Counted from the stretch's first letter, positions 1 to 50,579 are shown. The stretch: DNA of 64,000 nt from Paraspadella gotoi (GCA_051294375.1 CM119270.1:11724416-11788415), one strand, 5' to 3'. Numbers and translations: made by a program. Notes: generated by a model not told the origin, from the letters alone.

Positions 1-56
1 TCAAACGAAATTTTAGACAAAACATGAATTAAAAAAAATACTTTGTGGTTTTAAAT

Positions 57-16087: not shown

Positions 16088-16148
<61 letters not shown>

Positions 16149-16256
16149 TAAAACCACAAAAGTATTTTTTTTAATTCATGTTTTGTCTAAAATTTCGTTT
16201 GAAACTTCAATTGGACACGCGAGTTAAGGCGGATCAATCATAGTTTTTGTTTTGAT

Positions 16257-16325
<69 letters not shown>

Positions 16326-18209: not shown

Positions 18210-18484
18210 TGCCTCGTCGTCGCTGAATCCTGTTCCTCTCAACAGCAAGACCGATGGCTTCCGTTTCCCATGACGACGGAAATCTCGGCTCTGGAAACTA
18301 CGTCCCGATGATGGATCCTTGGGCGCCATGTCCGGATACGGAAGGAGGAAGAGGGACGCTGGAGAGGGAGTGTCGGGGGAGAAGGAGACGTTGGAGGAGA
18401 AGGGGTTGGAGAGGGAGAGAGTGATGCTCGGATGGTTATGGCGCCGGTGAAGTCTGCGTTTAAATTCTGCGAAGATCAAGTGGA

Positions 18485-18580
<96 letters not shown>

Positions 18581-18799
18581 TTTTCTTAATCGCTATTGTT
18601 TATCTTAACTGTTTTTATGCTAGGAAACGACGCGAAAGGCACGAACAGAAACGACAACGGCGGGATGTGGTTCGACTGTCAAAGAATTGCTGTAAGTCTT
18701 TTGTTTGTTGTTTCCAGTTCCTTGATTCAAGTTGTATTATAACATTTTCTTCAACAGGACGTCTGGAAATCATCTATGGAGTTCATGACAAAGTCATGA
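18210..18799 (+). pseudogene. Secreted peptide-precursor family member G (5'-truncated, frameshifted) in palindrome spacer
   Basis: Exon 18210-18485: CLVVAES-CSSQQQDRWLPFP...MSGYG-RRKR-DAGEG; exon ~18624-18702: WFDCQRI(C)CKSF; exon 18758-18799: DVWKSSMEFMTKS-stop; signal exon not found; indels may be sequencing error. Confidence 0.7.
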
Positions 18800-20382
18800 C
18801 TCTAAATCCTCAGACATCGAATTCCTCAGCATCATCATCAACAACAACTTACATCCGAGAAAACCAGAATTCCCATTGTAAAAACGTTTCTAACAATTGT
18901 CAATAGTCATTTTGTATATTTTTATGGTGTCATATTCTGTAATGGATCATAATAAATATAATCACATCAATAAGTAAAAATTTCTTTTAAAAAAACGAAT
19001 CTTTTTTATTACATAAGAATTTTATTAAATTATAGTAGTTGTGTAAACATAAAAATTGAAAGTTATGAAGTGATTTGAGTGCGTCAAGATCACATCTTTC
19101 GAGATCGCGCGCGCGTTTAGAATTGGGGCAAAAGACCGGAAGTGAAAAAAAAAAGCACGCGAGCCGCGGGGCGCATCGGGGCGAAGCTGGGCACGGCTGG
19201 GCGGTGCTGGGAGCGCGTGAGCCGAGAGGAGGAAGCCAGCGCAGGGGAAAATAGAACTGTGAACTGCTAAAGGAAAAGTTGACAGTATCAACTGTGCGTA
19301 ACTATATTGATGCTTTGCGATATGATAACTTTTGTAACAACGTCTCAAAAAATGAAAATTTTTCCCCTGATATTTTCGTGGGAGATTTTTCTAAGAAGAG
19401 CAGAACGTTTCTTAGACAAACCAACAGTTGATAAATATAATAAAACTCGTGTTTTCCAACTTTTTCCCGACCTTTCGTTTTCATTGCTGACGTCGTCGTC
19501 TCCATCGTCGTCTTCTTCGTCGTCGTCGTGGATCTTGACGTCGTGATTGTTGTTTTAAATATCATTCACCTCTGCTATATTTAAACATTTTGGTCGTTTG
19601 TTATTTTTTATTGAAAATCGTACGTTAGAAGCAATCCCGTGATTTCTTAAAAAAAAAAAAAAAAAAAAGCAAACAAAAATTTAAACTGTCAGTTTATTTC
19701 ATTGATTAATTTTGTTTAATAGAAATTGAAACTCGACAATAGGCCTCGTTTTTTTTTCGAGGCGTGAATTTCTTTTTTCGATCTAAAAAACGATTAAACT
19801 TCCTTCCAATTAGTATTTAATTGATTGAATTCCCGAGTGAAAAGCCTGCATTAAAAAAAAATAAAAAAAAGAGCAAAATAAAATACAAAGCAAAAAAAAA
19901 GGAGATTTTCAACACGTTTTATTTTGATTTTTTGTTTTTTTAAAACATCACAACACTTGATGATAATATTATTTTTCTTATTATCATTGTCGGTCTTATT
20001 CAGTTGATTCAAATGCACAAAATTTTCACAGGGTCAATTTGAATGTTTGTTTTTTGAAGCGCATCACAATTTTTTTCCCGCAAAAAGAAAAAACATTTAG
20101 CAACATCTAGCTAAACTTAAGCAAAAGGCAATATTTAAATTGTCGTTATTCTTTCTCTTCACACACATGAGCCCCATTTTTCGCTAAAACTAGTTCTACC
20201 AAAATAAATTTTCTAAAAATTCTAAAAAAGACTCATCACACTAAGGTCACTGGACACTCTAACTTCGATTCTCTCGATCAACGGCTGTCGAAAAATGTCA
20301 AATTGTTTAGTCAAACGCTGGATAATCGTGGAAAGAGAGAGAAGATATAAATAATATGCGGAGGGAAAGAAAGATAGAGAGA

Positions 20383-20448
<66 letters not shown>

Positions 20449-20557
20449 CAAAACAAAAACATAATGATTGATCCGCCTTAACTCGCGTGTCCAATTGAAG
20501 TTTCAAACGAAATTTTAAACAAAACATGAAATTAAAAAAAATACTTTGTGGTTTTAA

Positions 20558-20617
<60 letters not shown>

Positions 20618-20623
20618 ATCACT

Positions 20624-20688
<65 letters not shown>

Positions 20689-20689
20689 G

Positions 20690-20727
<38 letters not shown>

Positions 20728-20824
20728 TCTCCCTCTCTCTCTCCGTATTTTTGCTAACTCCTTTCTCTCACTTCCGATTCGTAATCCCAATTCTCTTTCT
20801 TCAAATCCCAACTGGTCTTCACCG

Positions 20825-23800
20825 ATGGCGACGACAGATAACGAAAAACTTTTAAAACTTCCGCTCGGATAATTTGCCACCGCCAGGGCCATCACCAACG
20901 CCACGTTCTATCATGTCACACCTTCTTCAGATGCTTCTCCGATTTCCTGATGCCGAATACGCCACCACCAGTGTCAAAATCGTCATGAATTCTGTTAACG
21001 CCAACACTTTTACCATTAACTCAAACCTGAATGCCATTACCTCGAACTGCAATGCCATGAACGCCGCGCCCACCCAAACTCCGCCACTGCTGTCCCCCTT
21101 ACGAGAAACGGGGAATTGCCAGAAATAATCATGCGCAGGTAAGCCTTTGAAATATCCAAAGTACCACAGCCCTAATTTTTTCTCATACTTTAAATTTTTT
21201 TTGGTTTTTACTCACAGAAAGAGACAACGCTGTTGCTGGCAACGAACTTTCCTCGAACGAACTCTCATTTTCATCTCCGTGTTCCTCTTTATCGTCCTCA
21301 TTATTATGACGGTCATTCTCGTTGCAAATTTGTCAGTAATTTCATCGTCTTCTCAAGAGTTAAAAACCCCTAGTGAGTTAAATTTCAGGCTTAAGTCTAA
21401 ATAGTTTAAAAGTCATGGATATGTAAAGATCTGTGTAGCTGTGTTACTGTAGTTACTACATTCAGAGCGTTTTCGTTTTGCTTTGCCAGAACGCCAATTA
21501 ACCCATCCTCGCAACGCGTCGACGCCGTCGCCGAAGATATGCACTGACTACGAATGGTGACGACGGCAGCGACTATTTTGAAAGGATTGGATAAACGGGT
21601 GGATCCTGCGAGTGAGAAAAACAACACCGAAATAATGAATGAAAACTGATGTTACATAATCGAAAAAGCAATCATGGACTTTGGATTTTATTGCCATTCC
21701 TTCAGCGATTTCTACAAGTACGCCTGCGGCAACTGGGATCGATCTCACGTGATCCCGAAGACAATTATGAGTACACGACCTTCAACGAGAAGCGGACAAA
21801 CTCTACCTCGACGCTCGTTGGTTGTTGAAGAGCCAATCAACGATCGAGAAATCAAAGCTTTTAGTCAAATCAAAACTTTTTTATCGATCTTGCGTCAACA
21901 TCAGTAATTTTTTTTTTGTGAGAGTTTTCAGGTTTCCACATCATTATCACATTCTCATCCTCCCAAATCCCAAATCCCAAATCCCAAATCCCTATCTCAC
22001 CAAGGTGCAGCTCCGAATTTTCACGTGACGGAGTTGAAGCGGCTTCTCCACGAGGATCTCTACGGGTTCCCGCTGCTCGAGGGTCCCATTGGAGTCCCGA
22101 AGGTCCCGACCACTGCAGGACCTCCTCGCTAGTCTGCGCAAGTTCGTCGTCAAACCCATTTTCGCCATTGACGTCCACGAGGACGACAAAAACTCTTCCA
22201 GGTACATCTTACAGGTAAGGACAAAGTTATCGTCGGTTGAAGGCGGGATATATATTGTACATTTATTTTAAAACTCACAGAAGTGTTAATAACCAGATGA
22301 TAACCTGGAAGATATTAAGAGGTCAATTTTTTTTTCTCATCCAACTCAGCTGGATCAACCCGACGGCTACGCTCTGGAATGCCCCGCCCTTACCTCTTGG
22401 CCGACAACTCGCCTACATTCCGCAGTACAAGAAGTACATTTTCGACGTTAATTAATTTGTTGGAACCGAACATTCGACGCATCAACCCGAATTTGCAAAC
22501 GAGAGATCGATGAACTCGTGGAATTCAACATCATGATAGCAAACGTTAGCTCAATGATTGATTTAATAAATGAGTGCATGAATGTTGTACGGCAATTTGT
22601 TTGGGAGATAATCACTTACAGGAATTAGTTAAGGAAAAAGGCGGTTTTATAGAATGGAAACCAAATAATATGTATTTTTAACGTAAGTGGGACAAACCGT
22701 CGGACCGACAGACCGACCGAAAAGTGAATTATAGTTGCTCCGCGAATATTCGCGGCCCAACCAAAAAAGGTGAATGTTTTTTACGTCCTAGATCACAACA
22801 CCGCAAAGCGAGCGCCGTGATTACATGTCTATGTATTCAAAATGACGATAGCCGATTTGCAACAACGCTATCCCATGGTTCGTATGCGAAAAACAGACAT
22901 TGGTTATTATAACGAACAAAAGTCGGCTTAATTGAACTTTAAATTTTTAGGTCGACTGGCTAACGCAAATAAACTACCTGACAAAAGTGACGTGGACGAA
23001 AGGGAAGAGATCGTTCTATACGCTTCGAGTTACATGACGAAACTGATGGCCTTAATTAGAGAAACTGACCAAAGGTAAGGCTGTTAATATGTTGAATAAA
23101 AAGGATAGGTTTTAATGTTTTGGACGATCTATCAGAGTTCGTATAAATTCGCCATGTGGATATTTTTAAAAGCGCGAACGGAAAACCTCAAGCATATTTT
23201 CGAAGGTCCAAGTCGAAATTTTCAAAGGTGCGAAAGAATCAAAATATTGAAAATACCTATGAATATGTTATAGGTGACACTAATGAAGTAGTATTGCAAT
23301 TAAAATAGGTGCTATTGGGTTTCCAAACCTTCCCCACGCTGGGAGTATTGTTTGATGCAAATCACGAATCATGCCTTTTTAGAAGACGTTATCGGCCGAT
23401 TATACGTTGACAGATTTTTTTGACGAGGTAACCTTTCATTTTTAAAATGGAAATTATTGTTTAAAAGTATGAATGTTTACTCTTCAATGTCTTCATGCAA
23501 TTCCATATGTATGTTTACTCTTCTTGCAATTCCAGGGTGCCAGGAACAAGGCTCAGGAGATGGTGAAAGAATTGCAAAAATCCTTTATCAACATTTTGCA
23601 CAATACAACCTGGTTGGACGAAGAAAACGCTCGCCGTTGCCATTGACAAAGTAACTGAAATTAAAGTTTTTCGCCCTTTGAATAAAATAATGAGAACATA
23701 GCTCAATGTTAGGTAAACAACATCGATGCTCGCATCGGTTATAGCGAGTTGCTGAAGAACAACGAATACTTAAATAAAAAGTACGAGCCTCTACAGTACG

Positions 23801-29138: not shown

Positions 29139-29850
29139 TCAGATGTGTTGAACGATGAAAGCGATGGATTGTGACCATCGATTCTGACAAAGATGAGGAG
29201 GGGGAGAAGTGTTATACGTAATAGATATTGTATATTTAGTATTAGATTTAGGTAGTTAAGGATTGACTGAAATAAACATCAAACTCACCATCGAAATTCG
29301 GCACAAATCTGCGCATTGGAAGTTTAAGTCTGCGGAAACCTGTTGAAAGTTGATTAAACAATGTTAGCAAAATATTTAAAAAATCAATAAAAAAAAAATA
29401 AAAACAAAGAAAACAGAAAGCGAGCAAGCATGCATACTTTATTGGTCTGTAGAACGGCCTCCACCTGCGTCACACAATCTGTTACGCAATCATTCACTGT
29501 TTCCGCCAGATGTCCTTGCTTGATCGCTCCGCCCGGTTCCACGCCGTCGGTTTCTGCATCGGCGGCTGCTTCTGCCGTCCTGCCGCTCAGGTGTCTGCCT
29601 TGTTCCCCCGACTGGCAGGCCGCTGTTGATGTCTATGGCATCGCCATGGGATGTACTTGTCGGGTAGTTGGATGAATGACAAAGTCTTTCCGTCTGTTAA
29701 AAAGAGACAAAAAAGGCAATAAAAAGCCAAAACATAGCGATTGGTCAACCTTTTTTAATTGATAAATTTTTATATAATATAATAATGAGGACTCACCATC
29801 GCCGCCAAAAAGGCGACCAATATAGCGAATTTCGTCGTTGTTATCGTCAT
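29139..29850 (-). CDS. Secreted peptide-precursor family member A (exon 2 frameshifted)
   Basis: Exons 29850-29797 MTITTTKFAILVAFLAAM; 29693-29438 TERL-CHSSNYP..DKYIP..GRQK..VNDCVTDC (across indels); 29339-29289 VSADLNFQCADLCRISM; 29183-29139 NRWSQSIAFIVQHI-stop; GT-AG introns. Confidence 0.7.
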
Positions 29851-30172
29851 TGTTTCCCTCAGAACTAAAGCATGCTAAGACTTTCGGGGGGGAAATACAC
29901 GATTCCGGTACGAAAAGGAAACAAAATGATTATGATTTTGTATTTTGTACAATACAGTATGTTAATTCGGAAAGTCAGAAAAGTCCCTAAAAAAGAATGA
30001 GCTGATAGGTTAACTAATAATCTTGGCTAATTATTGACCAACCTTAGCCCTAACTTTTTAAGGGACGTAAAATAAGACATAAAAAGGAACAAATAAGGGT
30101 AAATAATGTCTGGTCAGTGGTCGCTCAGCATTTTCGTTACTGTATTCATTTTTTTCGTTTTTGTTTTAAGCA

Positions 30173-31463
30173 CTACAGCTGCTCCTGTGGCAGCTGTATC
30201 TGCTGCTGTTTTACGATTCTTAAGATGGAATCGTTCCAAAAAGCCTGGGAGAAAAAGAATAGTAAAACTTTAAACTTTAAACTTTTCGATTCATTATTTA
30301 TATTCAGACAATAAACCTACTTGGAATTGTAGACAAAGCTGCTTGCAGTTTTCAGTCACGTATCCTTCATTTTGAATCGCCTTCGCGGGGGACTATGCGA
30401 TCAAAATTTTAAATTTGAATTTGATTTTAGTCAACTATTTTTTTCATCATTTGGCCGTTATTCAACTTTCTTTCAAAAACATTTAATCGGCCTCAATGTA
30501 ATAATCATTTCTTACCTCATCCCTTCATTAATTATTTATCGTTCATCACTTCTAACTCGACCAACCTTCACTTCCCATTCACAAACCCCGACGCATCATT
30601 ATTTATCGTTCATCACTTCCAACTCGTCCTCCCTTCACTTTCCATTCACAAACCCCGACTCATCATTATTTATCGTTCATCACTACCAACTCGACCTACC
30701 TTCACTTCCCATTCACAAACCCCGACGCATCTCTTTAATTCCTTCGTCTGATCCTCGTCCTCGCTCCGCTTCCTCCTTCCGTGAAGGAAAGGAAAGGGAA
30801 AACCGAATCCGCCGCCCATGTATCCTCCGCCGCCGCCCCCGCCTTTGAAGGACAAAGAAATTGGAGTTCAAATACAATTTATTAATTATTTAATTAAAAC
30901 AAAGATAAAACTCTGTTATATTTTTTATGAAATTGGTACAACCAATATAAAAATCATCTATTCATTCAATAAATAAGCTATCTTGCCCCTGACTTTGGAC
31001 ATGCTTTGGTGGTTTAAGGCCTCTATCACTCTTACAAGATAATGACATAGCAGGTCCTTGCAAGCTTTCAATTAAGACTCTCTCACAATCTCGTTTATTT
31101 ACACCCAGAGTATCCCTTCTCTCCTTATTTATTTATACAATCAACAGTTATTTTACTCAGTCATTCATTGATATTATATTATTGTTTAGGGTACTATTGG
31201 CAATAGTTTAAACTAGTACTAGTACTAGTATATTATAATTTTTTTCAAACGAACGAATGTTTGATATATTTCTAAAAAGTCACCTTGAGGAACCGGAATT
31301 GGCATGATTCGATCTCGACCGGGTTGCGAAGAGCAGCCCCATGATATCTCAAACTAAAAAGTTTTTAAATCTTTTAAAATCAAAGTATTCTTAAATAAAT
31401 CCCACATGACCCAGAACTGACGCTCACCATGGCAACGAGAAGAAAACTGAGGGTGACCCACAT
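30173..31463 (-). CDS. Secreted peptide-precursor family member B (intact, 5 exons)
   Basis: Exons 31463-31428, 31353-31284, 30842-30700, 30392-30321, 30244-30173 splice in frame: MWVTLSFLLVAMFEISWG-CSSQPGRDRIMPIPVPQGGGGGGGYMGGGFGFPFPFLHG-RRKR-SEDEDQTKELKRCVGVCEWEVKSPAKAIQNEGYVTENCKQLCLQFQAFWNDSILRIVKQQQIQLPQEQL. Confidence 0.88.
30520..30732. repeat. Three tandem ~65-bp units duplicating the 3' end of precursor B exon 3
   Basis: TTATCGTTCATCACT..AACTCG....CCTTCACTT.CCATTCACAAACCCCGAC repeated three times. Confidence 0.85.
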
Positions 31464-31786
31464 TTTTTTTTCTTAGTCTAAAAATGAAACAATTCTTGCG
31501 CGTAAAAATCAAAACAGTATTGTCGAGTCAAGTAATCAAGTCAAGTAATCAAGTAAATCAATTTTTTTTTCCTCTTCATAATTTCAACAAGACCAAAAGA
31601 CGTGGGTTATTACTCACTCACTTCTTAGGTTTTTATTATGTCATTATTCAAAATTAAATACTGATAATACTTTTTATCCAATTTAACAGAATTATGAATT
31701 GAATTGTTATGAGGTTATTCTTCATCAGTCATTAGTCCTTTCATTTCGTTCTGTCATAAAATTTAAAATTGTTCCGTCCAAAAAAG

Positions 31787-32097
31787 TCATAGATTCCGAC
31801 GCAGAAATTCCGCCGCGGTTCTCTTTCCATCTTGTACGAGCCTCTCCACATCAACAGCCGACCTTTCTCCATCTTCCGTCGACCTTTTTCTCTCGGCAAC
31901 GACGGACTTTTCAGCAGCATTCCTCTTCTTCCGCCCGAACCCCATCATCGGGAAGCCGCCGTAGCCGCCGAATCCGCCGTAGCCGCCCCCGAAGCCCCCG
32001 CCGCCGCCGCCTTGAGGCACCGGAACCGGCATGACTCGATCTCTGCCCGGCTGCGACGAGCAGCTCGAGGAGAACTCGATCTGAAAAGGAAAGTTTT

Positions 32098-32186
<89 letters not shown>

Positions 32187-32263
32187 TTGTCGTGAATGCC
32201 TGAAAACTGAAAACTCACCAATAGAACAAGAAGGAACATGGCTGCAAACCAGGGAGCGTTCAT
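31787..32263 (-). CDS. Secreted peptide-precursor family member C (2 exons, follower lacks cysteines)
   Basis: Exons 32263-32219 and 32080-31787: MNAPWFAAMFLLVLLIEFSSS-CSSQPGRDRVMPVPVPQGGGGGGFGGGYGGFGGYGGFPMMGFG-RKKR-NAAEKSVV... Confidence 0.88.
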
Positions 32264-32386
32264 TTTCCTTGTGGTAAATTTTTACTATACTTCAACTGTA
32301 AAGATTGATAACACAATGTAGAGCGAATGATGTAAAAATGAGGTATATATTCTGAGTATTTGATTTTAATAAATTATGACATTATG

Positions 32387-32911
32387 TCACGTTAACATAA
32401 ATATTAAGTCTTTTAACAGCTGTTCACAGTCGCCGATGCGTCGAGAAATGTTCAAAGATTTTCCGGATTCCTGAATAAAATATTATTCAAGGGAATTTTA
32501 ATATTCGACTGGGCGAATTTAAGTTCAAATTATCTTCCCCCCCCCCATCACCGAGCAACCAAAACACACATCCCCTCAGACACCTTCCAACTCCCCACCT
32601 TTTGTTTTCTTCTTCCAAACTAGAATCTTCGACGTTGCGTTTTCTTCGCCCAAAACCGAAACTGCCGTACCCTCCATAGCCCCCGTAGCCCCCGCCCCCT
32701 TGCGGCACGGGGATGGGCATTATCCGGTCATTTCCCGGCTGGAATGAGCAGCTCCGGCTCACCTCCGCCTTTTTTTTAACGGGTGAGGGGGTAAAAGATT
32801 AATACTTTAAAAATCCTATGATTTTATTAATCCAGCTGTGGAAGAGGGTCACTTTTTTCCAATACTTACACAAATCACGAGTAGAAACGCGAAAAAAAGA
32901 AAGCTCCTCAT
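32387..32911 (-). CDS. Secreted peptide-precursor family member D
   Basis: Exon 32911-32870 and exon from 32768: MRSFLFFAFLLVICAEVSRS-CSFQPGNDRIMPIPVPQGGGGYGGYGGYGSFGFG-RRKR-NVEDSSLEEE...RCLRGC; probable last exon 32470-32387 (IGDCEQL), splice phase uncertain. Confidence 0.85.
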
Positions 32912-34101
32912 TTCGTCGGTATTAAAAAGTCAGGAAAAGTGAATGAAATCCTCTTCTTTCCCTTTTTCGCCTTCGGAAGGAATGAGAAAAAAAAAACAAC
33001 CAAAAAACGCTGCGTTTCCGTTTTATACAAAGAAAAACATTCAAGTTTCGTGTACAATTCATAACCGAAGGTCCATTGATTCCTAATCCCCTTAAAATTC
33101 AACGCCTTCCAAAGAAAATCGTCCCACGGAGAAAATTCCCCCTTTTTTTTCGCTTCTGCCGTTTTTGTCATGCATTCGATTCTAATGGAGAATCGATTTC
33201 GGGGAAATAAAACAAAAATGCGTCGAATTAACTGAGAGAAAATAACTTGGATGACAGTGAATTTCAAGGCCATTTTTTATTTGTGAATGGGATAGTAGTC
33301 GGTGAAAAAATGTTAGATGAGTATAACTTAAAGAGCATTAATTTTTTTTTTAAATTCTTAGTTTACCAGCTTGTCTGTGGGGGTCAGACCGGAAACTAAT
33401 ATAAACATATTATAGAAGTTGTTCGTTAAAATTCAACTCTTCGTAAGCCAGTTTGTTTTGCTTGTTGACTAGCAACAACTTGCAACATCTGAAACCGCCT
33501 AATCATTCTTTTACGTATCTACTCTTATTCGTTACTTATAATCTTCTTGAAGCTTGATGATTATACTATATGTTACTCTTATTTTTATTAGTCTAATCAT
33601 ATCAAAAGTCACGCGCTTTGTTTTGCAGTCAAGTCAGAAGAATGTGGAAGTGACCCTATTCCGCTGCCTTATTAAGAATTCCATTCTACATAGTACAATG
33701 AATCGATTTGATGACAAAATACGTCTATTTTTCGATTTGATTCATTAAAATATTTTTCCCTCCGATCTACATTTTCAGTGGAAAGGGAATCGCGAAGAAT
33801 CACAAAGGAACGAAAACAGATTAGGAACAAACGGTGATTAAAATGACAACGGACGAAAAAAAAACAACAACGAAAAATTGGGTTTCCGTCTACATTGAGG
33901 TGAGGCTCTTTTTGGGTTAGAAAAACCGAGACAGTAGGAATTAGGCTGAAATGGAATAGATTTCAGATTTTTATTCAATGACAATTATTTGTGGTTGCTT
34001 AAACGAAGTTAAAACTTCATTGTAGGCTGACTTCGACGATTAATTGTCAACAACTAATACAAGACCAAATGATTCCGTTCTTATTCCCAATTCACTAAAG
34101 T

Positions 34102-34892
34102 TCACGCATTCACTTCCTTGTTCCTTGAAAGAAAGTTGATCAATTTTCGCTTTTCTTCCTCTTTTATTTCGGTTATACCGTTGATCCAACGATTCTGTAA
34201 ATATAAATATAAAACTTTATTTTGTAAAGTTCAAATAAGTATCTGATGAAAACAAGTCTTCCATTAAATTATTTTTAAGGGAGCCTAAAACCTTTATATC
34301 GTCGCATATCGAGGTACAATCGCCGGCCATAGACTTTCTCCAAAGGCCTTGAGTTCCTCTCTCCTACAAAAAAACGTTTTGTCAAATTGAATAAACGAGA
34401 AAAGTTTGATTTTCTTTTGAGAAGAATCCTACGTCAACAACGCATTCTCTACATTTCTCTCAAGCTTGCTTCCTTGCTTTTCTTTGAAGCCTCGAGTTCC
34501 AACCTCCATAAATCGCCGACAGTTGGCGACGCAGGCGTTGACGACCTCATCGTCTCCCTCTTCCTCCGCGTCGTCTCTGTCTCTATCTTCGATCCCCTCG
34601 CTCCTCCGACGCCGACCAAATCCGAATCCCCCGCCGCCGAACATCGGGACCGGAAGCGGGATCCATCTATCGGGGCCGCGGGAAGAGTCAGAGGACCAGC
34701 AGGCGGAAGAGGCGTGGATCTAAAGGGGGTGATGATGATGATGATGATGATAAATGTATAGCATAAAAAAGTATTTATCGGTGTACAAATAAGTATAATC
34801 TTAGTTAATTTATCAGTATAGCTAAAACTACTGCATTAACCTACCATCGTCACCGCAACGAACGAGCAGAGCAAAAGAGTTTTTCCGTCCAT
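34102..34892 (-). CDS. Secreted peptide-precursor family member E (intact, 4 exons)
   Basis: Exons 34892-34845, 34719-34504, 34363-34292, 34194-34102, all phase 0: MDGKTLLLCSFVAVTMIHASSA-CWSSDSSRGPDRWIPLPVPMFGGGGFGFG-RRRR-SEGIED...VNACVANCRRFMEERGTQGLWRKSMAGDCTSICDDIKNRWINGITEIK... Confidence 0.88.
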
Positions 34893-35097
34893 GAGGAGAG
34901 ATTAAAGATTGGCGCAATGTATTTTTCTTTTAATACTAAAAAACTAAATTATGTCAGTTACCAAAAATACTAAGAGACTGTTAGTGCCAAACTGACAAGA
35001 CATATTTATATGGCCAACAAAGTTTATTTTAAGGAATCTATATAAAACGCACAGCCGAGTCTTTCTGTAAGGACGCGATGAATTGATTGACCGATCT

Positions 35098-37694
35098 TTA
35101 ACTTCGGAAACTTAAGAGCTGGGATTTCCAAAACGTCTGAAGAAAATAAAGAATTTATAAAATCAATATTAAACAAACATTTATTGAGTCCTGGTGAAAT
35201 CCCCCACCTCGACGTCTTGGCAAAGCCATTCGCATTTTCCGATCTCAAAATTATTCGTTTCGGTTCTGAATTCTTCGTTTGTTGAGTCGTTTTCCCTCTA
35301 GAAATTGTAAAAATAAATCGCACAGTTACAAAATTATGACGCATAAATTTGTTTTTAATATATTGTTAAAGTCACTGACTCCCAGCTGTCCCAAGCAAGA
35401 CTTGACGCAATCGTATTTCGTTTCGGCGATCCGAAATTTCCCGGTAGCGGCGTCAGCCGTTGCGTTGTCCGCCCGACGCCGTCGTCCGTGACCGATGACG
35501 CCGACGAATCCCGGCCTCATTCCGCCGCCGCCGCCGCCGCCGACTGGGATGGGAAAGAAACGATCGCGGCCCGGAGTCGAACACGAGATCGAGAGCGGAA
35601 CCTAAAAGAGATTAAAGCGTGGGGTGCGGAAATCGGGAGTCGATAAAGAACACTTGAGATTAGGGATAGTGTGGGGTGAAGGAAATGAGGCAGGGTATTA
35701 AGATTTTTAGATGGGGACCACCGAAATGGATGAAATTTAAATACAGTAAATATTAATACGAAATGGAAAAAAACTGACTAAATATATTCTTCGGGAGAGA
35801 AAGTTATCTTCCCAGGTGAGTTTTGGAAGGTTTGTCATTACGTAATTCAATACCGAAGGTGCAAATTACCATCTTGGAAAATGAATAAGTCGCCAATTTT
35901 TAAAGTTAGTTAATTGTATATTAAAAATTTAAATATAAGAGAAAAAATGGGTATCAATATGTAGTGTAAACTCCCTTGCTCTTCACAACTTCATTTATTC
36001 TGTTCGGCATTGACTCATAGAGCGACTGCAGAATATTCCAAGGAGAGGTTATCCCAAACTTTTTTGATAAGTCGTTTCATGGCTTGCAGAGATGTTGGAC
36101 GTTCGTTTCTCAGTCATTTTTCATCTCTGACCACACCTTTTCGATCGGATTGAGAATCCGGAGAGTTCCCAGGCCAGTCAGGTAGAAAGTTTAACCTCAT
36201 TTCGGCGATGCCACTCTTTTGTCTCCTTGGTCGATTGCGGAGGGGCGTTGCTTCCATAAAAACTCCACCTCGGACGAATTCCTTTATCTTCGCTTCCTCC
36301 AGAATTTCTCTGGATTTGGCGCCATCAACGCGTCCCGAAATGAAGATTAACTTTGACTTGGCACGGGAGGAGATTACAACCGCAACACCATGACCTTCGG
36401 TTGCTGCTTAACCATCTGCAATATGCAATTAGGATGCAATGCTTTGCCGACGCTGCTGCACACTTCGAAGATTCACTCTTAGCTGCTTAGATATGGAAGT
36501 ATTCTTGATACTGTGCAGGTAAGACTTAAAGCTGCCCTCACTGCTGTCCGTCCTCAGCCTCGTCTCAATGGCTGAGCAGGCTAAATCATCTCATTCCATC
36601 CGTGCGTCCGGGTTCAATCCCCGGTATCCCGGTTCTGGCTTAAATGTGACGGTGCCCGGTATAACATGCCAGTGACAGGAGCGAGTCACTGAGGGTCCTG
36701 CAGCCCTTACGCCAGTTGGTGAGATACCCCGCGCCGCCCGGGTATCACAGGCTATCCTCCCGTTGCCATAAGTGGTGAGCCCTAACTATCGAACACGCAA
36801 CCGCTGCGCACCGTGCGCCCACGCTACGTCGCTTAGGGTATGCATTATCACGCCTATGCCCTACTCTCTGGTAACGCTCCAGACTCGCTCGCTCGCTCGC
36901 CCGCTCGCTCTCACTATGGCAATGAGATCAAAACCTTCTCTCAGACATCTCCTCAGGATGAGGCCCCTGTGGAGAAGTCTGGTGGGGGGATCCTGTGGCA
37001 GTAAGACTTAAAGCTGCCTCACTGGGGCTGTCCGTCCCAGCCTCGTCTCAATGGAACTGAGCAGGCTAAATCATCTCATTCATCCGTGCGTCACGGGTTC
37101 AATCCCGGTATCCCGGTTCTGCTAAATGTGACGGTGCCGGTATAAACATGCCAGTGACAGGAGGCGGTCACTGAGGGTCCGCAGCCCTTACGCCAGTTGG
37201 TGAGATACCCGCGCCCCGGTATCACAGGCTATCCTCCCCGTTGCATAGATACCCGCTTTTGTGAAAATTCCAATTATAGATGCACGTTGATCACTTGTAA
37301 AATGCCAACGTTGAGCATAAAAAAGAATATACAGTGAAAATAAAAAAAAAAATGAAGGAAAAAAAATTATTAAAAATCTTGAAAATACGCCAAAGAAAGC
37401 AAATTTTTTTCGATCTCCCTTCTTTTCTTTCCTGCTTGACCCTCGACGCAATTTTAATCATAATCTAACATAAACGGGGCTCCATTGATCGAAAATCGCC
37501 AAGCTTTCTGGAAATATAATTTTTTTTCTTTCGATTATTGTTAGGAAGGGTTTAAAAATGATCGAGAAGTTGTTTGGCGACTTATTCATTTCAACGATGT
37601 ACTGTGATAGGCTTGGCTGGGGGATGCGTAAAAGAATGCCCAAGGTCAAAGTACTTACCGTCAATAAAAATATCCATAACAAGAATTTATTCAT
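35098..37694 (-). CDS. Secreted peptide-precursor family member F (intact, 4 exons; intron 1 carries transposons)
   Basis: Exons 37694-37659, 35601-35380, 35297-35208, 35136-35098, all phase 0: MNKFLLWIFLLTVPLSIS-CSTPGRDRFFPIPVGGGGGGGMRPGFVGVIGHG-RRRR-ADNAT...YDCVKSCLGQLGRENDSTNEEFRTETNNFEIGKCEWLCQDVETFWKSQLLSFRS. Confidence 0.85.
35862..37604 (-). mobile_element. Tc1/mariner DNA transposon relic (internally deleted, frameshifted transposase ~37318-35954)
   Basis: Inverted repeats AAATGAATAAGTCGCCAA (35879-35896) / TTGGCGACTTATTCATTT (37574-37591); fragments AQRWHFTSDQRASIIG..KAGIKNTSISKQLRVNLRSVQ (HTH), KVMV.GC, DWPGNSPDxNPIEKVW, SLYESMPNRINEVVKSKGVYTTY-stop. Confidence 0.88.
36512..37247 (+). 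mobile_element. TRIM-like non-autonomous LTR retroelement
   Basis: ~255-bp direct repeats 36512-36770 and 36994-37247 with TGTG(G)CA...TGC(C)ATA ends; PBS-like TGGTGAGCCC at 36773; purine tract GGTGGGGGGA at 36981-36990; 5-bp target-site duplication GATAC (36507-36511, 37248-37252); no internal pol. Confidence 0.85.
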
Positions 37695-38827: not shown

Positions 38828-40550
38828 TAAGCGAGAAAATGGTTGAACGAATGATATAAAAACTTTTAAAAAATGAGACAGCAATGAATGAAATGAATCG
38901 CTAAAAAATTGCAAAGGGCAATAAAAAGAAATGGACAGAAACATGAAAAAATGGAGGAGAGAGAGAGAGTGAGAGAAAAGGAGAGAAGAGAGAGAGAGAG
39001 AAGAGAAGAGAGGAGGAGAGAGAGAGAGAGAGAGAGAGGGAGAAGGAGGAAGAAGAGATAAATAGAAAAAAAAGAAAAAGAAGAGTTAAATAGAGAAAGA
39101 AAAGAAAAGAGATAAATAGAGAAAGGAGGAAAAGAAAGGTACAAGTTGGACCGAGTGTTGCGTCGTCGGTCGTTTCAATCTTTATTGTTCTCTTAAGGTC
39201 CTTTAATGGTTAAATAATTTTCACGTTTATTCGCGTTTTTATCTTTTGTTTGGTCATTTACGGTCCATTCGTGGTTAAAGTACTATAGGTTTGTTACCTC
39301 ATTTGATATTTTGCTTAAACTATTATTATCGAAGGAGGATTCGATCATTGTTTTAGTGATTTTCAGAATTCATTTAATAGTCAGTTGTGGACGCAACAAG
39401 TTTTAGAGTAAGAATGTTGCGTCCACACAGTATTCTTTTTTTTTTTGAATAAGTTGCGTCTCTCGATTCTCGTTTCTCGTCAAAGATTACTCTCACTCTC
39501 TCCTCGATATATTTTTATCCTCTTATTGCTTCTTTCCCTCATTTCATTCTCATTTCTCTCCCATAAATTATCTTATTTTCACATTCGTTTTCTTTTCTTC
39601 CCTTTCACCTTCCTCTTCTCTCTCGCGCCCTCTCCCTTCTCACCTTCAGTCTCACCCATCCGAGCTTTCAGAGCCCAATTCGCCGACCCGTTTCGTCGAA
39701 AACTCTTTTACACGGAACCGCTCGCCGACAAAGAGAATCTTCTTTCCCAAAAACGACGCTTCTCCGTCTTCCGCCGCTGCCGCTGCCGCTGCTGCCCGCC
39801 GCAGCGGCCGCCGCCGCCGCTTCCGACGGAACCATTCGCGGTGCCGCTGGATCGTCCCGGCGACGTCGACTTGGCCCTGAGCGGCGCGGCGGGCGCGGCG
39901 TCGGTGGCAGCGGGCGTCAATCCTAACGTCATCACCCAACATGTCGCTCACCGGACGCCGCCGAATAAGCGAAGTCAGCGGGTAGGCCTCATCGGCTAGC
40001 AGCATGAGCGGCGTCGCCAGCGTTGGGAAAGGAGCCAGTCCGAGGTTGGACGAGAGGGGCACTATTTTCCGAAAGCGCCCCATTTTCTGATTCTAAAACT
40101 TTAACTTAAGTAAAACCTTAATCTTTTTTTCAAAGTGTTTAAACTTCAATCCAATTCATCCTAACCTAATCGATAACTCTCATAGGAATATTCCTTATAT
40201 TCCTAATATTCCTAACCTAATATAGGAATATTCTATCCTTTATCTAAATCCTTTATTCAGCCATTCCTACTTCCTGTCGCCCCGGCGCGGCGTCGGTTGG
40301 CCCTCGCCCCGATCCGGTATCGTTCTCGGCGCCATGCACCCTTCGCCTCGCCGCCTGGGGCTCGGGGCCGCGACGGGCGCCTCACCGTCGTCGAGAGGGT
40401 CGCCTCGTTGGATCGGGAGGGGATTCTCGACTCGGGGAACGGCGTCGACGAGCTCTTTGGAGGATCGCCTGAGGATGTCGCCCATCTCGAGGAGGCCGAA
40501 GAGCTTCTTGACGGCAGAGTTTGCAGGTGGGGGACGGTGAAGAGAAGAGA

Positions 40551-40604
<54 letters not shown>

Positions 40605-41939
40605 AGAGAGAGAGAGAGAGAGAGAGAGAACGGCAAGTATACAGGCAAACTGACAGAAAGACACATTCAGACGGAGAAACAACAAAAAAAAAAGCCAAAA
40701 ATGTTTTAACTTCCCCGATTCCTCCTCCTCCGCCCCCCACATTTCCACATTCCCCCCCTTTTTTAATTAGGCGCCTCCTCTTTCCGACACCCTCAGGACG
40801 CCCCAACAAGGCGTGGGCGTCGATCCAACCGGAAAGTCGCGGACGTCGAGTCGTCGGGAATCCCACGCCTCGCGAGACGAGAAGACGGATGGAGCAAGAG
40901 GAAATGGAGTTTAACATGTCACAGTTATTTTAAGAGAGGGGAAATATTTTAGAGGCCAAGTAGGTTCTCTAATTTATTTAATGTGATATGGATAGTCCAC
41001 CTGTCCCCGACATATTAGAACGTAGCAAAAGGATTTGCAACAAAGAAAAATACTGAGAGTTCCAAACTAATTATTGTTTTTATGCTTACTTACTGAATAT
41101 GTATTTTTAAGGAACGCGTACGCGATTGGCTCGTCAACGAACGACGAGCGATTTCGGAGGATGTCGGGTTCTCCGTGAAGAATCTTCGTGAAGGAGGATT
41201 CGTCGCTGAAGGAAGAAGTTCCTCGCGCGGGGTTCGTCGCCCGTCAAGGAATCTCCCGCGAAAACAACGCCGGCGAGGGGAAGCCAGGGGACAGAGTCGG
41301 CGCCGATCGTCGTCGAGGAGAAAAAGGCGGAGGAGGCCCGAGGTCAAGGAGAGGGATGCAAGGAGGAAGCGTGGACGGCGCGAGCGGCGGAACAGTTGGC
41401 GCCGTCGCGGCCCACACCGTCTGTCGCGATTTGATCAGAGTCAACTCTTCGATTCGCCGGTTAAACTCATGCAATGTGAACGTTATCGCGAATGAACGTG
41501 ATTCGGCGGTCGTCGGCGTCGGCGGCGGCGCGGCGGCGTGACCGGATCAAATAAGGCGGACAATTTGAAGCAGGATCGCCGCCGGAAGCGGCGATAGAGA
41601 AAGAAGACGCTACTAGGTCGGCGCGGCTGTGCTTCCTCATTAAATAAAACCGATACTCAATCAAATATCAATTAGTCGTTTTCTCTTTTATCCCCTTACC
41701 TTTAGAGGCGTCCAGATCGCGACAAACGTGAACTTCGACCGTCAAGAATTGGCGGCGGGATTTTCTCCCCCAAACCATCTTTCGACCGGACGTCCATCTC
41801 CCGCAGCGGTCGGCAGCACCGGCGTCGGCAGCCTCACGGTCTTGACGGCGAAATGACTCGGATGAGCGTGATGGAGAGGAAGAAGATGCTCAACGTCGCG
41901 GAGACTTGCAAGAAGGACATCGGGGTTTGAAGATTCGAC

Positions 41940-42026
<87 letters not shown>

Positions 42027-42915
42027 AGAGAACGAGCAACCTCCCCCTTCTTTTCCCCAGCGAATCCCCGCTCCGCCTCTCCGGCAAGGCTCTCTCCGTG
42101 ACGAGCCATTCCGGGGAAACGAATCTTGGTGAGCGACGTCGGGTCGACGACGCGTCTTCTCGTCCTTCACCCTCGCCCCGCGTCCGCCTCCGGAGCGCGC
42201 TTTCCCGGCTCCTCACAAACGATCCCTACGCGGAGGAAGGATTTCCCAAGCAGACGCTCAAATCCGCGCCCGTCTGCGCCAATGAGGGGGAGGGCGAAAA
42301 GCCTGGAGGCGGAGATCGCCACGGCGTTGCAGGGCGTGGGCAGGGTGAGGGTGTGGAGAGGATTGTGGTGAGGCAGAGTCCGATATTTTAATTTAGTTTT
42401 ATTGTTTTTTGTGAGTGCGGGACGGTTGGACGGGGATCACCTTTCTTTATTGCTTGCGTTCGATATCCCCGTTCAAAAAAATATCGGTTGAGCTGACGGG
42501 TGATGATTGCGTGTCTGATCGAAATAAGAAATCGCGTGGGATTCGTGAAGCTTTTGGTTTTTTTTAATTTATAATTTATCGGTGTTTCCATCGAAAAACG
42601 ATTATAGCAATATCATAACAAACAAGGACAATAACAACAATTGTTGGTTTCGTTCTTAAGGCCTGGATCCTTCCAAGAGTTGGCTGGATTCCGCCTCTCG
42701 TTCCTGCGCCCCCCCCAGGCATCGGCGGCTTCAGCAGCTGCAGCAACAGCAGCATCTTTCGCCGCATCAGCATCCGGATTTTACTTTCGAACGACGAAGT
42801 GAAGCGATCGTTGAGCGAGATCCGACGTGGTTCCGAAGCGATGGTGGAGTCGAGGGAAGATCGATGCGAGGTGAAGAGGGTTGGGGATTGGAGGGTGGGG
42901 TCATTGGGGTTATAA
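38562..42915 (+). CDS. Multi-exon gene for a low-complexity, likely disordered protein of unknown function (copy A, many indels)
   Basis: First exon MDLFCLRMCCEREEKGG...; GC-rich exons at ~39.7, 40.3, 40.8, 41.1, 41.7, 42.06 and 42.66 kb bounded by AG/GT; last exon AWILPRVGWIPP...GSLGL-stop. Confidence 0.55.
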
Positions 42916-43610
42916 ATGGTGAGAGAACCTGGTGAACCACTTTAAAAGTGGGACCAGAGAAATTGTCATTATCAGAGCGGCCTGATACTACTTGGTAATT
43001 TTTTTTATTCAGCTTTTTCTTGATCGATCTGATTATTTAAGTAAAATTCTATGATCACTGGATGGCTTTCGAGTTAGCCCTCGATCGTTTTAAACTGTAA
43101 AATCCTTAATGTGAACGACTTTCTCGCTGGTCTTTAGTACTAAAAATAAAAAAGTAGAGGTGAGTCAAATTTCGCGAGTAACGATTCGCCGACACAGAAG
43201 CCAAGTCCCCTTTTGGGTGAGAGAATAAATAATTATTAATCATCTAATCAATTCTGACGACTTCTGCTGTTAAATTCTCCCTTCCTTTCTCTCTCTCTCT
43301 TCTCTTTCTCTTCTTTCTCTTCTCTTCTCTTCTCTTCTCTTCTCTCTCTTCTCTTCTCTTCTCTTCTCTTTTATTTTCTTTCTTATTCTCTCCGGATCAT
43401 CCTCCCAGACTCCGATCAAACCCGAAGATGAGTAATAGTTAATGAGGTAGATAATTTAAACGCTCGCCGAATAATCTTGCCCAAGAAAGTAAGGGTAGAT
43501 TGATGTCATAAATTTATATAATTTTTTCTATCTTACTTATCAAATTATCGATCTTAACGCTAAGAGGAAGAAAAAAATCTCTCTCTACTCTCTCTCTCTC
43601 TCTTCTCTTT

Positions 43611-43709
<99 letters not shown>

Positions 43710-43751
43710 CCTTTTCGTGCTCGTTTTGATAAAGTTCATCGCTTAATACAG

Positions 43752-46700
43752 GTTGTCCCTCCGCTGAGAAAACGTAAACAACAACGCAGAAACGGTGGAC
43801 TATTGGCCGACCTACGAATACGACGACGACAACGACGACGACGATTTCGGCTTTTGGCGACGACGACGACGACGACGACAACAACAACAACAACAAGGAC
43901 AAAGTGGAGAAAAAAGGAAAAAAATAATGAGGAAGACGAAGGAGAAGCGTGGCTTCGACAGGGGGAAGGTCACGGCAAAGGCGAAAAGAAGGAAGACGCC
44001 GGGGTCGGCGGCGGCGTCGGCGGCGGCGCTGGCGCGTCGGTGGGTGTCGACTCGCGAAGAGAAAGTCCTTCAACGAGAGTCGATTCGTCCTCGGAAGGAA
44101 GAAAAGAATATCGTCCTTTGACGCGAGGGGGAGACGAGAAGTGGGGCGGTCGCCGCTTCAGCCGCCGCCACCGCCGCGGCCCGCTGCCTTGCCCAACTCG
44201 TCCTTGGGAAGGAAAAGGAAAAAGGGGCGTGGCCGTGGCGGTAAGCGACGAGATCGCGTCGAAAATCTGGAGAAAGCGCGCGGAGGGCGTCGTCGTCCGC
44301 CGTGAGGAGGGACGAGGCCAGACGACGATCGGCGAAGGGCGGAGGATGGAATCCTTGGGGGCGGAATGGAGAGAGGCCTCGAGGGAAGTGCGAGTTGATG
44401 AGGAAGATAGAGATTGAGACGGAGGAAAGATCGAAACACGGACGCCATTTTACTAATGAGAAGGAAAGAGTGAGTCAGAGAGATTCCGATTTCGGCTGCT
44501 GGAGGAAGTGGGCGGGTCACAAAGATACCAGTCCACTGGGTGTAACAAAGATGCCGATGAAAACGATGCCTGTTTATCGTTATGTAAGAAGAAGCCAGTC
44601 GGAGAGACGCCAGTTTAAGGAAAGGTAAAAAAGATGGTGGACAAAAAAGGAGCCAGTTTAGCTTTAGGAAAAAAAGAGGCCGGTCAAAAAGATGACAGTT
44701 CGACGATGGGTAAACAAAGAAGGCCGTCAAAAAAGTGAGAGTTTAACCGGTAGTAGAAGGAGCCTGATGCAAAAAGATGGTAGTTTTAACTGTAGGTAAG
44801 AAGGAGCCTGTGCAAAAGATGGTAGTTTAACTATGGGCGAAAGGAGACCAGTTTAAAAAGATACAAGTTTTTTGGCACGAGAGAATCTCGTCGAAAGGAG
44901 GTTGGATTTGCGTGGCTAAAAGAGAAACTGAACAAAAAGATTTTAGTTCCGCAAAAAGTCAAAACGAGGCGAGTCATAAGACACCAGCTTTTGGCAAGAA
45001 GATTGAGGCACGTCGAAAATGCTATGGTGAAAGAGTTACGAGCATGGCTAGTGCAAGAGGAGCGAGTCTGAAACAAGCCAACTTTGGGGTGGTAGGAAAG
45101 GAGGCCAGTCCAAAAATTGCCATCTATTGCAGCGTGAAAAAGAGGCCGGTTAAAACCAGAAATCCTGTCGGCGAGTGGCGAAGAGACCAGTTTTGTAGCC
45201 CGAGATAAAGAGACTATTCAAAAACTGACAATTTTGTGAAGGAAGTTATTCAAAAAATCCGAGTGTGGAGCAAGATTGATTGAACCAATTCATAAAACCG
45301 TTGTATCGAAAAAAATAAATAAAAATAGTCAAAATAACTCGAATTTCATTGAAGAAGAACATCATGCAGTGCAAAGGATTTATTCTCAGACAAAAGAGGA
45401 ATGAGTGTTCACAAGCTTCGCTTTTAAAGTCTTTAAAATAGATGCCATTCAAGAGATGTGGTTACACAGAAGGAGGGGAAGGAGCTTTTAAAAAAGATAC
45501 TGTCTGCACAAAAAAAGCAGAACAGCCGTACAAATAGCTACAAAATTTCGCTGAAGAACGAAGAGAAGCCTTTGTAAAAGATGCTAACTGTACGAAAGAA
45601 AGTACCATGGCCATTAAAAAAATTCTGACAATCTGGAAAAAAGGGAAGAAGCCATTCAAAAAGGTATTGGTAATACAAAAGAAACGGTAGAACCGTTCAA
45701 AAAAATGCCCAGCAACACTGGAGAGGGAAAAGGCCGAAAGAAAGGAAGAGAGCTTGACGGAAGAAGGCGAGGATGATGCTCGCTCAAAGACGTCAGCTTC
45801 GTAGTGATAGAGATGGAATTGGAAGAGGAGTACGAAACTACGACGGATTTGTTGAGATTGGAAACGTTGATTGGCGCGAGTCCGGAGACAAGAATGACGG
45901 ACGAGGGGAAAAATCTGGAAGGAGGAGAAAAAAGGAGACGAAGAAATCGGAGGAAAGGAGGAAGAAAAGGAAAAAGAAAAAGTGGAGAGGAGGAAGAATC
46001 TCGACGGAGACTCATCGATACGGTGAATAAAAATAGATTTATGTTTTGTGTTGAAGGTTTATATTTTTTTTTTAAACAGAAAGGAACCTAAGTTTTTTTT
46101 ATTCTCTCTTTCATCCTCTCGCTCTCGTGTTTTTGTATCATCATCGTCGTTATTCTCCGACGTCTTTCTTAACGTCTTCATCGCGCGATATTCTTGCTTC
46201 CGAGACAGTAGTCATTAACCTTTTGCCACTTTAAAGGGAAGACTCGTTATGGCGATGATCGAGGCAAACTTAAACCTCGCGTCTTTTGTTTTTTGAATAG
46301 TGGCTTTTTTTCGCAATACTCAATAATTTTTAAGTTTGAAACAAAAAGGTAACTAATCGGCATATAACGTCTGAGAAGACAAAATATGGTTCAAACTGCC
46401 GACGTTCTTATTTGGTCGTTGACTCTTCTTCTTGCAGAATCGGCAACGACGACAACGAACGGAGGCAGATACGGCGACAAAGACGACGAAGACGACTCCT
46501 CTCCAGCGACGAAGAAAAGGAGTGACGAGCCAGGGTTCTGTCAAAATGTCTCCGCCGGAACGGAAGTGACGCAGACACCGGCGGCGACGGAAGCCCGCGA
46601 CGTTGACGCCGCGACCAGAGACGGCGTTGTTGCGGCTGCGACAGAGGCCGGCGTCGTGGATGAAATAAGATGGCGGAAGCGGCGGCGGCAGCGGCGCAGC

Positions 46701-49093: not shown

Positions 49094-49124
<31 letters not shown>

Positions 49125-50544: not shown

Positions 50545-50579
<35 letters not shown>

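Follow-up and report, generated by a model that had tools for sequence, protein, structure and literature searches.

The stretch of Paraspadella gotoi DNA analysed here (GCA_051294375.1 CM119270.1:11724416-11788415; 64,000 nucleotides (nt), hereafter the window) consists of eukaryotic DNA in which (GA)n runs are numerous, and it includes a tandem cluster of six genes, A to F, which encode small proteins with a putative secretion leader and a common head motif. All six lie on the minus strand and were modelled from open frames and splice signals with GT-AG introns, the stop codon of gene A ending at 29139 and the ATG of gene F standing at 37694. The first exons (54, 36, 45, 42, 48 and 36 nt in A to F) are in phase 0 in every gene and encode a hydrophobic stretch, and in B to F small residues stand just ahead of an invariant cysteine (by inspection, following the -3/-1 rule). 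The encoded proteins are 107-141 residues long. Genes B, C, D, E and F have complete open frames, while gene A is frame-broken in the assembly. A preliminary description of the locus had proposed six same-strand genes, each with a short phase-0 first exon, and complete frames for B, E and F; all of this held, the outer limits of our models coincide with those proposed, and C and D, with two exons each, proved to be complete as well.

Behind the leader the proteins follow one layout: the invariant cysteine, a head that reads S-x-x-G-x-[DN]-R-x-x-P-x-P, a glycine run with tyrosine, phenylalanine and methionine, a hydrophobic end, a glycine, four basic residues and a tail. The basic site, R-x-[KR]-R, reads RRKR in B and D, RKKR in C, RRRR in E and F, and RKRR in gene A as carried by a contig of the sequencing run X1 described below. 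Glycine directly precedes this site in five of the six genes in the genome (B-F) and in all six when gene A is read from the contig. Counted from the invariant cysteine as residue 1, the predicted peptides are 28-42 residues long, with 21-40% glycine, 3-6 aromatic residues, a net charge of +1 to +3 and an isoelectric point (pI) of 6.0-10.3, and they would end in FGF (D and E), MGF (C), FLH (B), IGH (F) and GGL (A). Tail lengths are 44-87 residues, and net charges are -2 to -7 in four of the five genes scored and +1 in gene C. Two CX3C motifs followed by a tryptophan are found in the tails of four of the six genes (A, B, E and F); C has none, and in D a single CX3C and F-W stand in a read-through tail. 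Three exons share the tail in A, B, E and F: the first C-X3-C ends the core exon, the second lies in the next, and x-[RF]-W starts the last. The intron positions in the tail correspond between these four genes. Gene B has an additional phase-1 intron just past the head. The cysteine head with D-R or D-K and prolines, the G-R(R/K)(K/R)R site, the CX3C...CX3C...W tail in most genes and predicted peptide lengths of 28-42 residues had all been put forward earlier and are confirmed by the models, gene A differing in its P-x-x-x-P spacing and showing the basic site through the contig letters.

The pattern exceeds chance. Across all six frames of the 64-kilobase (kb) window the expression C-x(3-12)-[DN]-[RK]-x-x-P-x-P matched six times, five times on the minus strand within 31294-35583 and once on the plus strand at 18210-18269, with no match in the rest. 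A local profile, built from the spliced window proteins and run over all six-frame segments of at least 12 amino acids (aa), recovered the family exons at expect values (E) of 2e-11 to 2.3e-30, the best match being gene D (E 2.3e-30). Apart from the copy at 18.2 kb, no other place in the window scored below E 0.5, and no later exons of gene D emerged. Over 17 head codons the synonymous and non-synonymous differences number 7 and 2 between B and C, 12 and 2 between B and D, and 7 and 4 between C and D. These differences are mostly synonymous, and no DNA repeat of 40 nt or longer is common to genes A-F; hence the duplications are old, and it is selection that keeps the head, not recent gene conversion. 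Rfam gave no match in the window.

Splicing and expression

Confirmation of the junctions had been proposed as a check on the gene models, and it is supplied in part by X1, a public run which is stored as contigs, whose type ('RNA?') is an index guess and which contains a quarter of the sampled words; it was the one run that matched, and none was indexed as RNA outright. Its contigs join exons at nine of the 15 modelled introns, each time at the predicted place; of the six genes, all but D have at least one such joint. On the plus strand the nine stretches that the contigs skip have CT..AC ends, which is GT..AG on the minus strand. Against the window, the contigs of genes B, C, E and F show 0-1 differing letters, so their source is this genome or one very close to it; the contig of gene C matches 31638-32080 with no other letters and three gaps. 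The joint between exons 1 and 2 of gene E is not among the listed joints and was worked out from an 820-letter contig together with the bin depths: for a jump from 34719 to 34845-34966, the depths computed for bins 34553-34839 and 34840-35126 are 7.27 and 23.58, and those reported are 7.29 and 23.6. The exon 2 region of gene D (32544-32830) has zero cover in X1, from which we draw no conclusion, and the splice of this gene is a model prediction. Contig depths over the family are modest (5-30).

The plain reading of nine canonical joints in five genes is spliced RNA, intron-less DNA copies being formally possible as the source of the joined contigs. We conclude that the window genes are real, spliced and expressed, with expression resting on this one contig-stored run.

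Relatives, named families and the predicted fold of the tail

A single-sequence search with exon 2 of gene F gave no candidate. With a profile of the window exons, four proteins without a name were recovered (E 2.9e-11 to 8.5e-10), and the same profile, searched against 1,835,955,588 protein representatives, found 11 proteins at E <=0.001, of which seven (P0001, P0002, P0003, P0010, P0011, P0012 and P0017) were accepted as relatives and four (P0013-P0016) were rejected as repeat proteins matching only the G-basic-acidic stretch. The accepted outside relatives score E 9e-12 to 1e-9 among these 1.84 billion proteins. A further profile, made from the full-length relatives, added P0025 and P0026, while P0027 (E 0.07) is doubtful. 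In all, 13 relatives came out of the profile searches, every one unnamed, their sources being JGI, ENA, Logan and merc (a marine eukaryote catalogue), and none of the 15 cluster members examined has a name. Metagenome contigs were also matched (L001; 103 stretches, of which one passed), and this candidate was discarded as high-GC, bacterial-looking sequence with a chance E-R-D-R-V-M-P-V-P inside long unrelated open reading frames (ORFs).

The relatives fall into four types which match window genes B, C, E and F. P0001 resembles gene B (56 of 127 aligned residues identical), P0002-P0009 resemble gene C (38 of 67 in P0002), P0011, P0018 and P0025 resemble gene E (57 of 118 in P0011), and P0012 and P0010 resemble gene F (44 of 115 in P0012). 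Intron positions appear to be shared as well, since the exon-sized ORFs of P0017, P0019 and P0026 stop at the introns of gene B; P0017 and P0019 imply the same position for the intron after ..P-Q-G. The columns that are invariant across the five or six full-length relatives aligned comprise the first cysteine, S, G, R, P-x-P, the glycine run, the basic site, the four tail cysteines, a valine and the tryptophan, and the twin C-X3-C motif is present in all six. The family exists beyond this genome, and its layout is kept in the relatives.

That the family had not been recognised as a described one is borne out, as profile searches, Pfam, PDB, fold comparison and the open-access literature gave no named match. 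Pfam returned no family for the window exons and 10 relatives, and a Pfam row for MFS18 (E 0.095, in one of six sequences only) was too weak to accept. The best match in a sequence profile search of the PDB was unrelated (E 0.012). The small Tim proteins, which also bear twin CX3C motifs, were considered and rejected: TIM8 came up in the profile search of the PDB at a non-significant E of 1.5, Pfam returned nothing, and the window proteins have a hydrophobic leader. The protein Atlas held nothing usable for exon 2 of gene E (best score 0.76) or for P0011. In open-access full text we found no paper on the family's sequence motifs, nor any on such precursors under the names of the predicted amide ends.

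The fold was predicted with AlphaFold2 for the relative P0011, using a six-row alignment (mean predicted local distance difference test (pLDDT) 54). Apart from a helix over the leader (residues 3-21), residues 1-65 fall below a pLDDT of 50. Two helices, 67-79 and 84-122, carry both CX3C pairs and the tryptophan; block pLDDT values for residues 71-120 are 64-77. The prediction is thus of an N-terminal product without structure and a tail that forms a helical hairpin. Comparison of the model with the PDB by Foldseek gave no specific match (best E 2.3), and the wide fold search VIA returned generic helices only (best Z 5.9). Because the four cysteines, the valine and the tryptophan are invariant and a hairpin is predicted, the tail is likely to be a second product or a folding or escort domain. 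The preliminary description had placed an acidic spacer behind the basic site; the tail is acidic, except in gene C, and its invariant residues and predicted hairpin make it more than a spacer.

Coordinates, damaged copies and surroundings

Features of the window, with positions counted from its first letter; joints are pairs of positions brought together in contigs of run X1
Feature	Position	Strand	Exons	Joints in X1	Remarks
Gene A	29139..29850	-	29797-29850, 29438-29693, 29289-29339, 29139-29183	29183/29289	4 exons; exon 2 frame-broken in the assembly
Gene B	30173..31463	-	31428-31463, 31284-31353, 30700-30842, 30321-30392, 30173-30244	30243/30320, 30392/30700	5 exons; open frame
Gene C	31787..32263	-	32219-32263, 31787-32080	32080/32219	2 exons; open frame; head, glycine core, G-RKKR, cysteine-free tail
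Gene D	32487..32911	-	32870-32911, 32487-32768		2 exons as modelled; open frame; head, glycine core, G-RRKR
Gene E	34102..34892	-	34845-34892, 34504-34719, 34292-34363, 34102-34194	34194/34292, 34362/34503	4 exons; open frame
Gene F	35098..37694	-	37659-37694, 35380-35601, 35208-35297, 35098-35136	35136/35208, 35297/35380, 35599/37657	4 exons; open frame; exons joined at all three introns
Seventh copy (G)	18210..18800	+			head motif and G-RRKR in different frames; tail exons with lost cysteine positions
67-nt unit, three in tandem	30531..30731	-			copies gene B exon 3 at its 3' end (first CX3C), splice donor included
Palindrome	14443-22246				centre near 18350
Inner arms of palindrome	17119-17902 / 18806-19592				82-100% complementary, in eight pieces
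Outer arms of palindrome	14443-14816 / 21873-22246				98% complementary
Peptidase M13 (neprilysin-like) N-terminal copy	1140-1403	+			in a duplicated segment
Peptidase M13 N-terminal copy	14181-15017	-			in a duplicated segment
Peptidase M13 N-terminal copy	21650-21904	+			in a duplicated segment
Short element	30822-31108				in gene B intron 2
Tc1/mariner-like ORF	36114-36407				in gene F intron 1; likeness by eye, unconfirmed; no Pfam family
Repeat copies	36597-36698, 37081-37180				in gene F intron 1; tRNA-like box G-G-T-T-C-A-A-T-C-C
Similar segments	39400-51000, 52500-64000				many (GA)n runs; long E/K/R/S-rich open frames
828-aa open frame	56679-59165				low-complexity; no Pfam family

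The damage in gene A can be traced with X1. Over 29444-29676 its contig has 20 extra letters and three other letters, in 12 places, and it is identical to the window over the last two exons and the 3' end of the gene. What the assembly lacks there is for the most part isolated C or G letters, the surrounding stretch being GC-rich. With the contig letters gene A reads in one frame through Cys-His, D-K-x-x-P-x-x-x-P (the prolines two residues further apart than in P-x-P), a short core containing glycine, G-RKRR, an acidic stretch and the first CX3C, and the loose contig end at 29676 bears the final letters of exon 1. Since a single frame is restored, gene A is intact in the expressed molecule, and the break is either an assembly error or a broken allele; in the former case, similar frame breaks may affect further GC-rich coding stretches in this assembly.

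A seventh gene had been suggested at 18.2 kb. A copy is indeed present there, but it lies on the opposite strand and is frame-broken: at least two frame changes are needed, and the local profile matches it in two frames, at 18126-18308 (E 0.017) and 18274-18447 (E 0.12). It is likely to be a pseudogene or a badly assembled copy. The copy sits in the unique centre of the palindrome, which could itself be a true inverted duplication or an assembly artefact. In gene B, the X1 contig uses the donor of that copy of the 67-nt repeat which is nearest the exon, and no other; the spare donors could give alternative gene B tails.

The neighbouring ends of genes F and E meet closely. Worked out from record lengths and checked against bin depths, the gene F contig of X1 extends to near 34954, and the gene E contig begins near 34966, so that the 3' end of F and the 5' end of E overlap by some 13 nt, which could reflect read-through or a shared transcript. 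Among the relatives, P0012 (F-type) and P0018 (E-type) each come from a JGI contig with a length of 1367 nt. If the two records point to a single contig, as they may, F and E would be adjacent elsewhere too.

Intron 1 of gene F (2057 nt) contains transposon debris, with the Tc1/mariner-like ORF, as well as the two repeat copies, which lie about 480 nt apart and reach X1 depths of up to thousands. The short element in intron 2 of gene B has a summed X1 depth of about 60,000 from some 45-72 contigs, as of a very high-copy repeat. The M13 profile PF05649 matches four ORFs of the window (E 7.4e-08, 4.3e-04, 1.8e-10 and 6.1e-06) over its first 135 positions only, and the M13 copies may be gene fragments. 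The two long segments at 39400-51000 and 52500-64000 look similar by eye; no gapless repeat of at least 300 nt was found between them, so they differ by insertions and deletions or are less alike than they look.

Predicted processing, possible roles and known peptide systems

We read the window genes as precursors of secreted peptides that are processed by convertases, with a probability of roughly 0.85 on the sequence features set out above. Removal of the leader would make the invariant cysteine the first residue, and a furin-type convertase, cutting after the four basic residues, would release an N-terminal peptide of 28-42 residues with a charged, proline-rich head, a poly-glycine and aromatic stretch and a hydrophobic end, weakly cationic overall. 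Carboxypeptidase trimming would then expose the terminal glycine for amidation, in all window genes. The other product would be the tail, acidic in most genes, which in A, B, E and F would adopt a helix-loop-helix fold held together by two disulfides that link the CX3C pairs (C1-C4 and C2-C3 expected); the absence of this arrangement from genes C and D suggests that the hairpin is dispensable for some members. The peptides would serve as extracellular defence peptides, with the tail acting either as an escort of the sticky glycine-rich part or as a second effector. Tandem clusters of convertase-cut secreted peptides are common and well known, and the family is no surprise in kind; the combination of this head with a tether-like core and a hairpin tail is not well known.

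Host defence is a tentative assignment, made by analogy and given slightly less than an even chance. We rank it first because of the myticalin-like order of parts, the composition and tandem layout reminiscent of the nlp-29 cluster, and the existence of glycine-rich arthropod peptides; the glycine-rich cores with their aromatic residues and the negatively charged tails are defence-like traits. Several observations weigh against it. The predicted peptides are weakly cationic (+1 to +3), and the mature head is the most conserved part of the sequence, whereas defence peptides usually vary most there. No shared motif and no GATA or kappa-B-like site was found in the 250 nt upstream of the six start codons; D, E and F alone have TATA-like boxes, which stand at -109 to -118. 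The amidation glycine, which the preliminary description had made a family trait, is present in all six window genes but is missing before the basic site in P0001 and P0012, two of the six full-length relatives. Finally, since the B, C, E and F types have counterparts elsewhere at 38-57% identity, the paralogues are old and retained, in contrast to the lineage-specific turnover of the nlp-29 cluster of C. elegans (PMC2453101). Old, retained paralogues fit a signalling role at least as well as fast-evolving defence.

Such a role, with the genes as neuropeptide or hormone precursors, the amidated peptide as a receptor ligand, each old paralogue as a separate signal and the tail as a precursor-associated part, is a strong rival because conservation peaks in the head, the peptides carry little charge and the paralogues are old with counterparts elsewhere; we hold it to be possible, if on the unlikely side. 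The amidation glycine joined to a convertase site in every window gene (in A via the contig), the retention of four subtypes across sources with a head under purifying selection, and the modest contig depths all speak for it. However, constancy here lies in the N-terminal head, and the predicted C-terminal end differs even within subtypes, whereas in most neuropeptide families it is the amidated C-terminal end that is the constant part. Furthermore, the sites are tetrabasic and furin-type rather than the usual K-R pair, the cores are of low complexity and variable length with their 21-40% glycine, the two relatives lacking the amidation glycine count here too, and each precursor holds a single peptide copy where allatostatin-type precursors are multi-copy. 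On the other side again, the ..F-G-F-amide ends predicted for D and E and the ..M-G-F-amide end predicted for C recall the nlp-6 peptides of C. elegans (PMC3414713, excerpt).

The tail hairpin could instead be the main product, as a toxin, channel blocker or alpha-hairpinin-type defence module, and the glycine-rich part its pro-piece. The invariant C-X3-C...C-X3-C with tryptophan and the predicted helix-loop-helix are what this would lead one to expect, and the scorpion kappa-hefutoxins are defined by the same cysteine motif and fold. So are the plant alpha-hairpinins, according to the excerpt of PMC11591084. We nevertheless think it improbable that the hairpin is what the genes are for: the tail of C is free of cysteine and that of D has one CX3C only, yet both genes retain head, core and site; conservation of the head equals or exceeds that of the hairpin; and the acidic tails, at 44-87 residues (60-92 in the relatives), are far longer than known hairpin peptides. 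Structural secreted proteins, which would become part of a cuticle, egg coat, cement or mucus by cross-links at the cysteine and glutamines of the head, are no likelier. The G-G-Y and G-G-F repeats and the one unpaired cysteine and the glutamine residues in the head would suit them, and glycine-rich adhesive proteins are known, for example in ticks (PMC11772090, excerpt), but the window proteins are very small and have no long repeats, their folded tail is conserved, and a conserved tetrabasic site with a glycine is hard to explain in a matrix protein. That the genes are mere chance open frames in GC-rich, low-complexity DNA might be suspected from their low-complexity cores and from a window full of simple repeats. 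This has next to no probability, being refuted by the nine canonical splice joints, by relatives that reach E 9e-12 with the same intron positions, and by the excess of synonymous over non-synonymous differences in the head.

The oddest feature of the predicted precursors is the invariant cysteine behind the leader cut, where an unpaired thiol would point to a dimer, a mixed disulfide or a lipid. N-terminal cysteine acylation occurs in Hedgehog and Spitz. A more far-reaching proposal, which we offer as something of a long shot, is that the cluster belongs to an old two-product peptide system of aquatic animals: one product would have a lipidated or disulfide-linked cysteine head, a poly-glycine tether and an amidated aromatic end, the other would be the released, disulfide-stapled alpha-hairpin, and types B, C, E and F would have been kept as a linked set of paralogous signals since before the sources diverged. 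Returning to processed secreted peptides in general, if the predictions hold, the cluster represents a new secreted-peptide family of an aquatic animal lineage, with relatives in ocean and environmental transcript catalogues. It would provide defined candidates for new antimicrobial or hormone-like peptides, some 30-40 residues long, in which the head is constant and the amidated end varies. The precursor would be of unusual design, since conservation covers the cysteine-first, proline-rich head as well as the four-cysteine helical hairpin. The division of labour among paralogous peptides could be studied on subtypes B, C, E and F, which, having been retained, would be a natural set for this.

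The closest parallel in the order of parts is with the myticalins of Mytilus, a multigene group in which a signal is followed by a variable mature peptide of 23-42 residues, a dibasic site that often follows a glycine (predicted amidation) and an anionic extension (PMC5577615, excerpt). While this precursor order is shared, the myticalins have a pI >11, are proline-, arginine- and tyrosine-rich, lack cysteine, and combine a conserved signal with a hypervariable mature part (PMC5577615). The window family has a constant mature head, a charge of +1 to +3, a pI of 6.0-10.3, a tetrabasic site and a four-cysteine hairpin tail; its leaders differ from the myticalin signal consensus given in the same excerpt (PMC5577615), and the profile searches showed no sequence relation to myticalins.

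In layout and composition the cluster recalls the nlp-29 cluster of C. elegans, six small secreted glycine- and aromatic-rich genes in a 12 kb tandem, which have a neuropeptide-like name and a defence role (PMC2453101). That cluster differs between close species, whereas the window subtypes are retained (PMC2453101 for the former). The nlp-27..34 and cnc genes were absent from the profile matches, which were unnamed proteins only, and such searches can miss low-complexity relatives. The nlp-29 and caenacin peptides are not known to have a cysteine- and proline-rich head, a tetrabasic site with an acidic cysteine tail or a hairpin. Among arthropods, the armadillidins are linear secreted glycine-rich crustacean peptides of about 50 residues with G-G-G-aromatic units, held to be antimicrobial, of which synthetic copies were made without C-terminal amidation (PMC7017220, excerpt). 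They consist of glycine-rich tetrapeptide repeats, are rich in arginine and histidine and differ from the window peptides in having no conserved head; the excerpt describes no cysteine tail (PMC7017220).

For the tail the comparison lies with the plant alpha-hairpinins, defined by the motif C-X3-C-Xn-C-X3-C and a helix-loop-helix fold (PMC11591084). The motif is like that in the tails of A, B, E and F (four of the six genes), the likeness in fold being that of the P0011 model. Scorpion Cys-stabilised alpha/alpha peptides have the same cysteine motif and fold class as the alpha-hairpinins, and our searches gave no sequence or fold match to either group. The window tail differs in its loop of 18-26 residues, in its acidity and in being part of a longer tail behind a glycine-rich peptide. 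Moreover, the window precursors carry a single hairpin behind a tetrabasic site, are neither vicilin-type nor modular, and have animal-like neighbours, namely the M13 fragments and the stretch at 36114-36407 that looks by eye like a Tc1/mariner remnant, a likeness which the searches did not confirm.

At the other end of the predicted peptide, the allatostatin-A-like peptides of C. elegans nlp-5 and nlp-6 have ..M-G-F-amide and ..F-G-F-amide ends (PMC3414713). The ends predicted for C, D and E resemble these, while A, B and F end differently. Allatostatin-A-like precursors carry several short copies that end in [YF]-x-F-G-[LI]-amide, each between dibasic sites, whereas each precursor of the window family would yield one long glycine-rich peptide.

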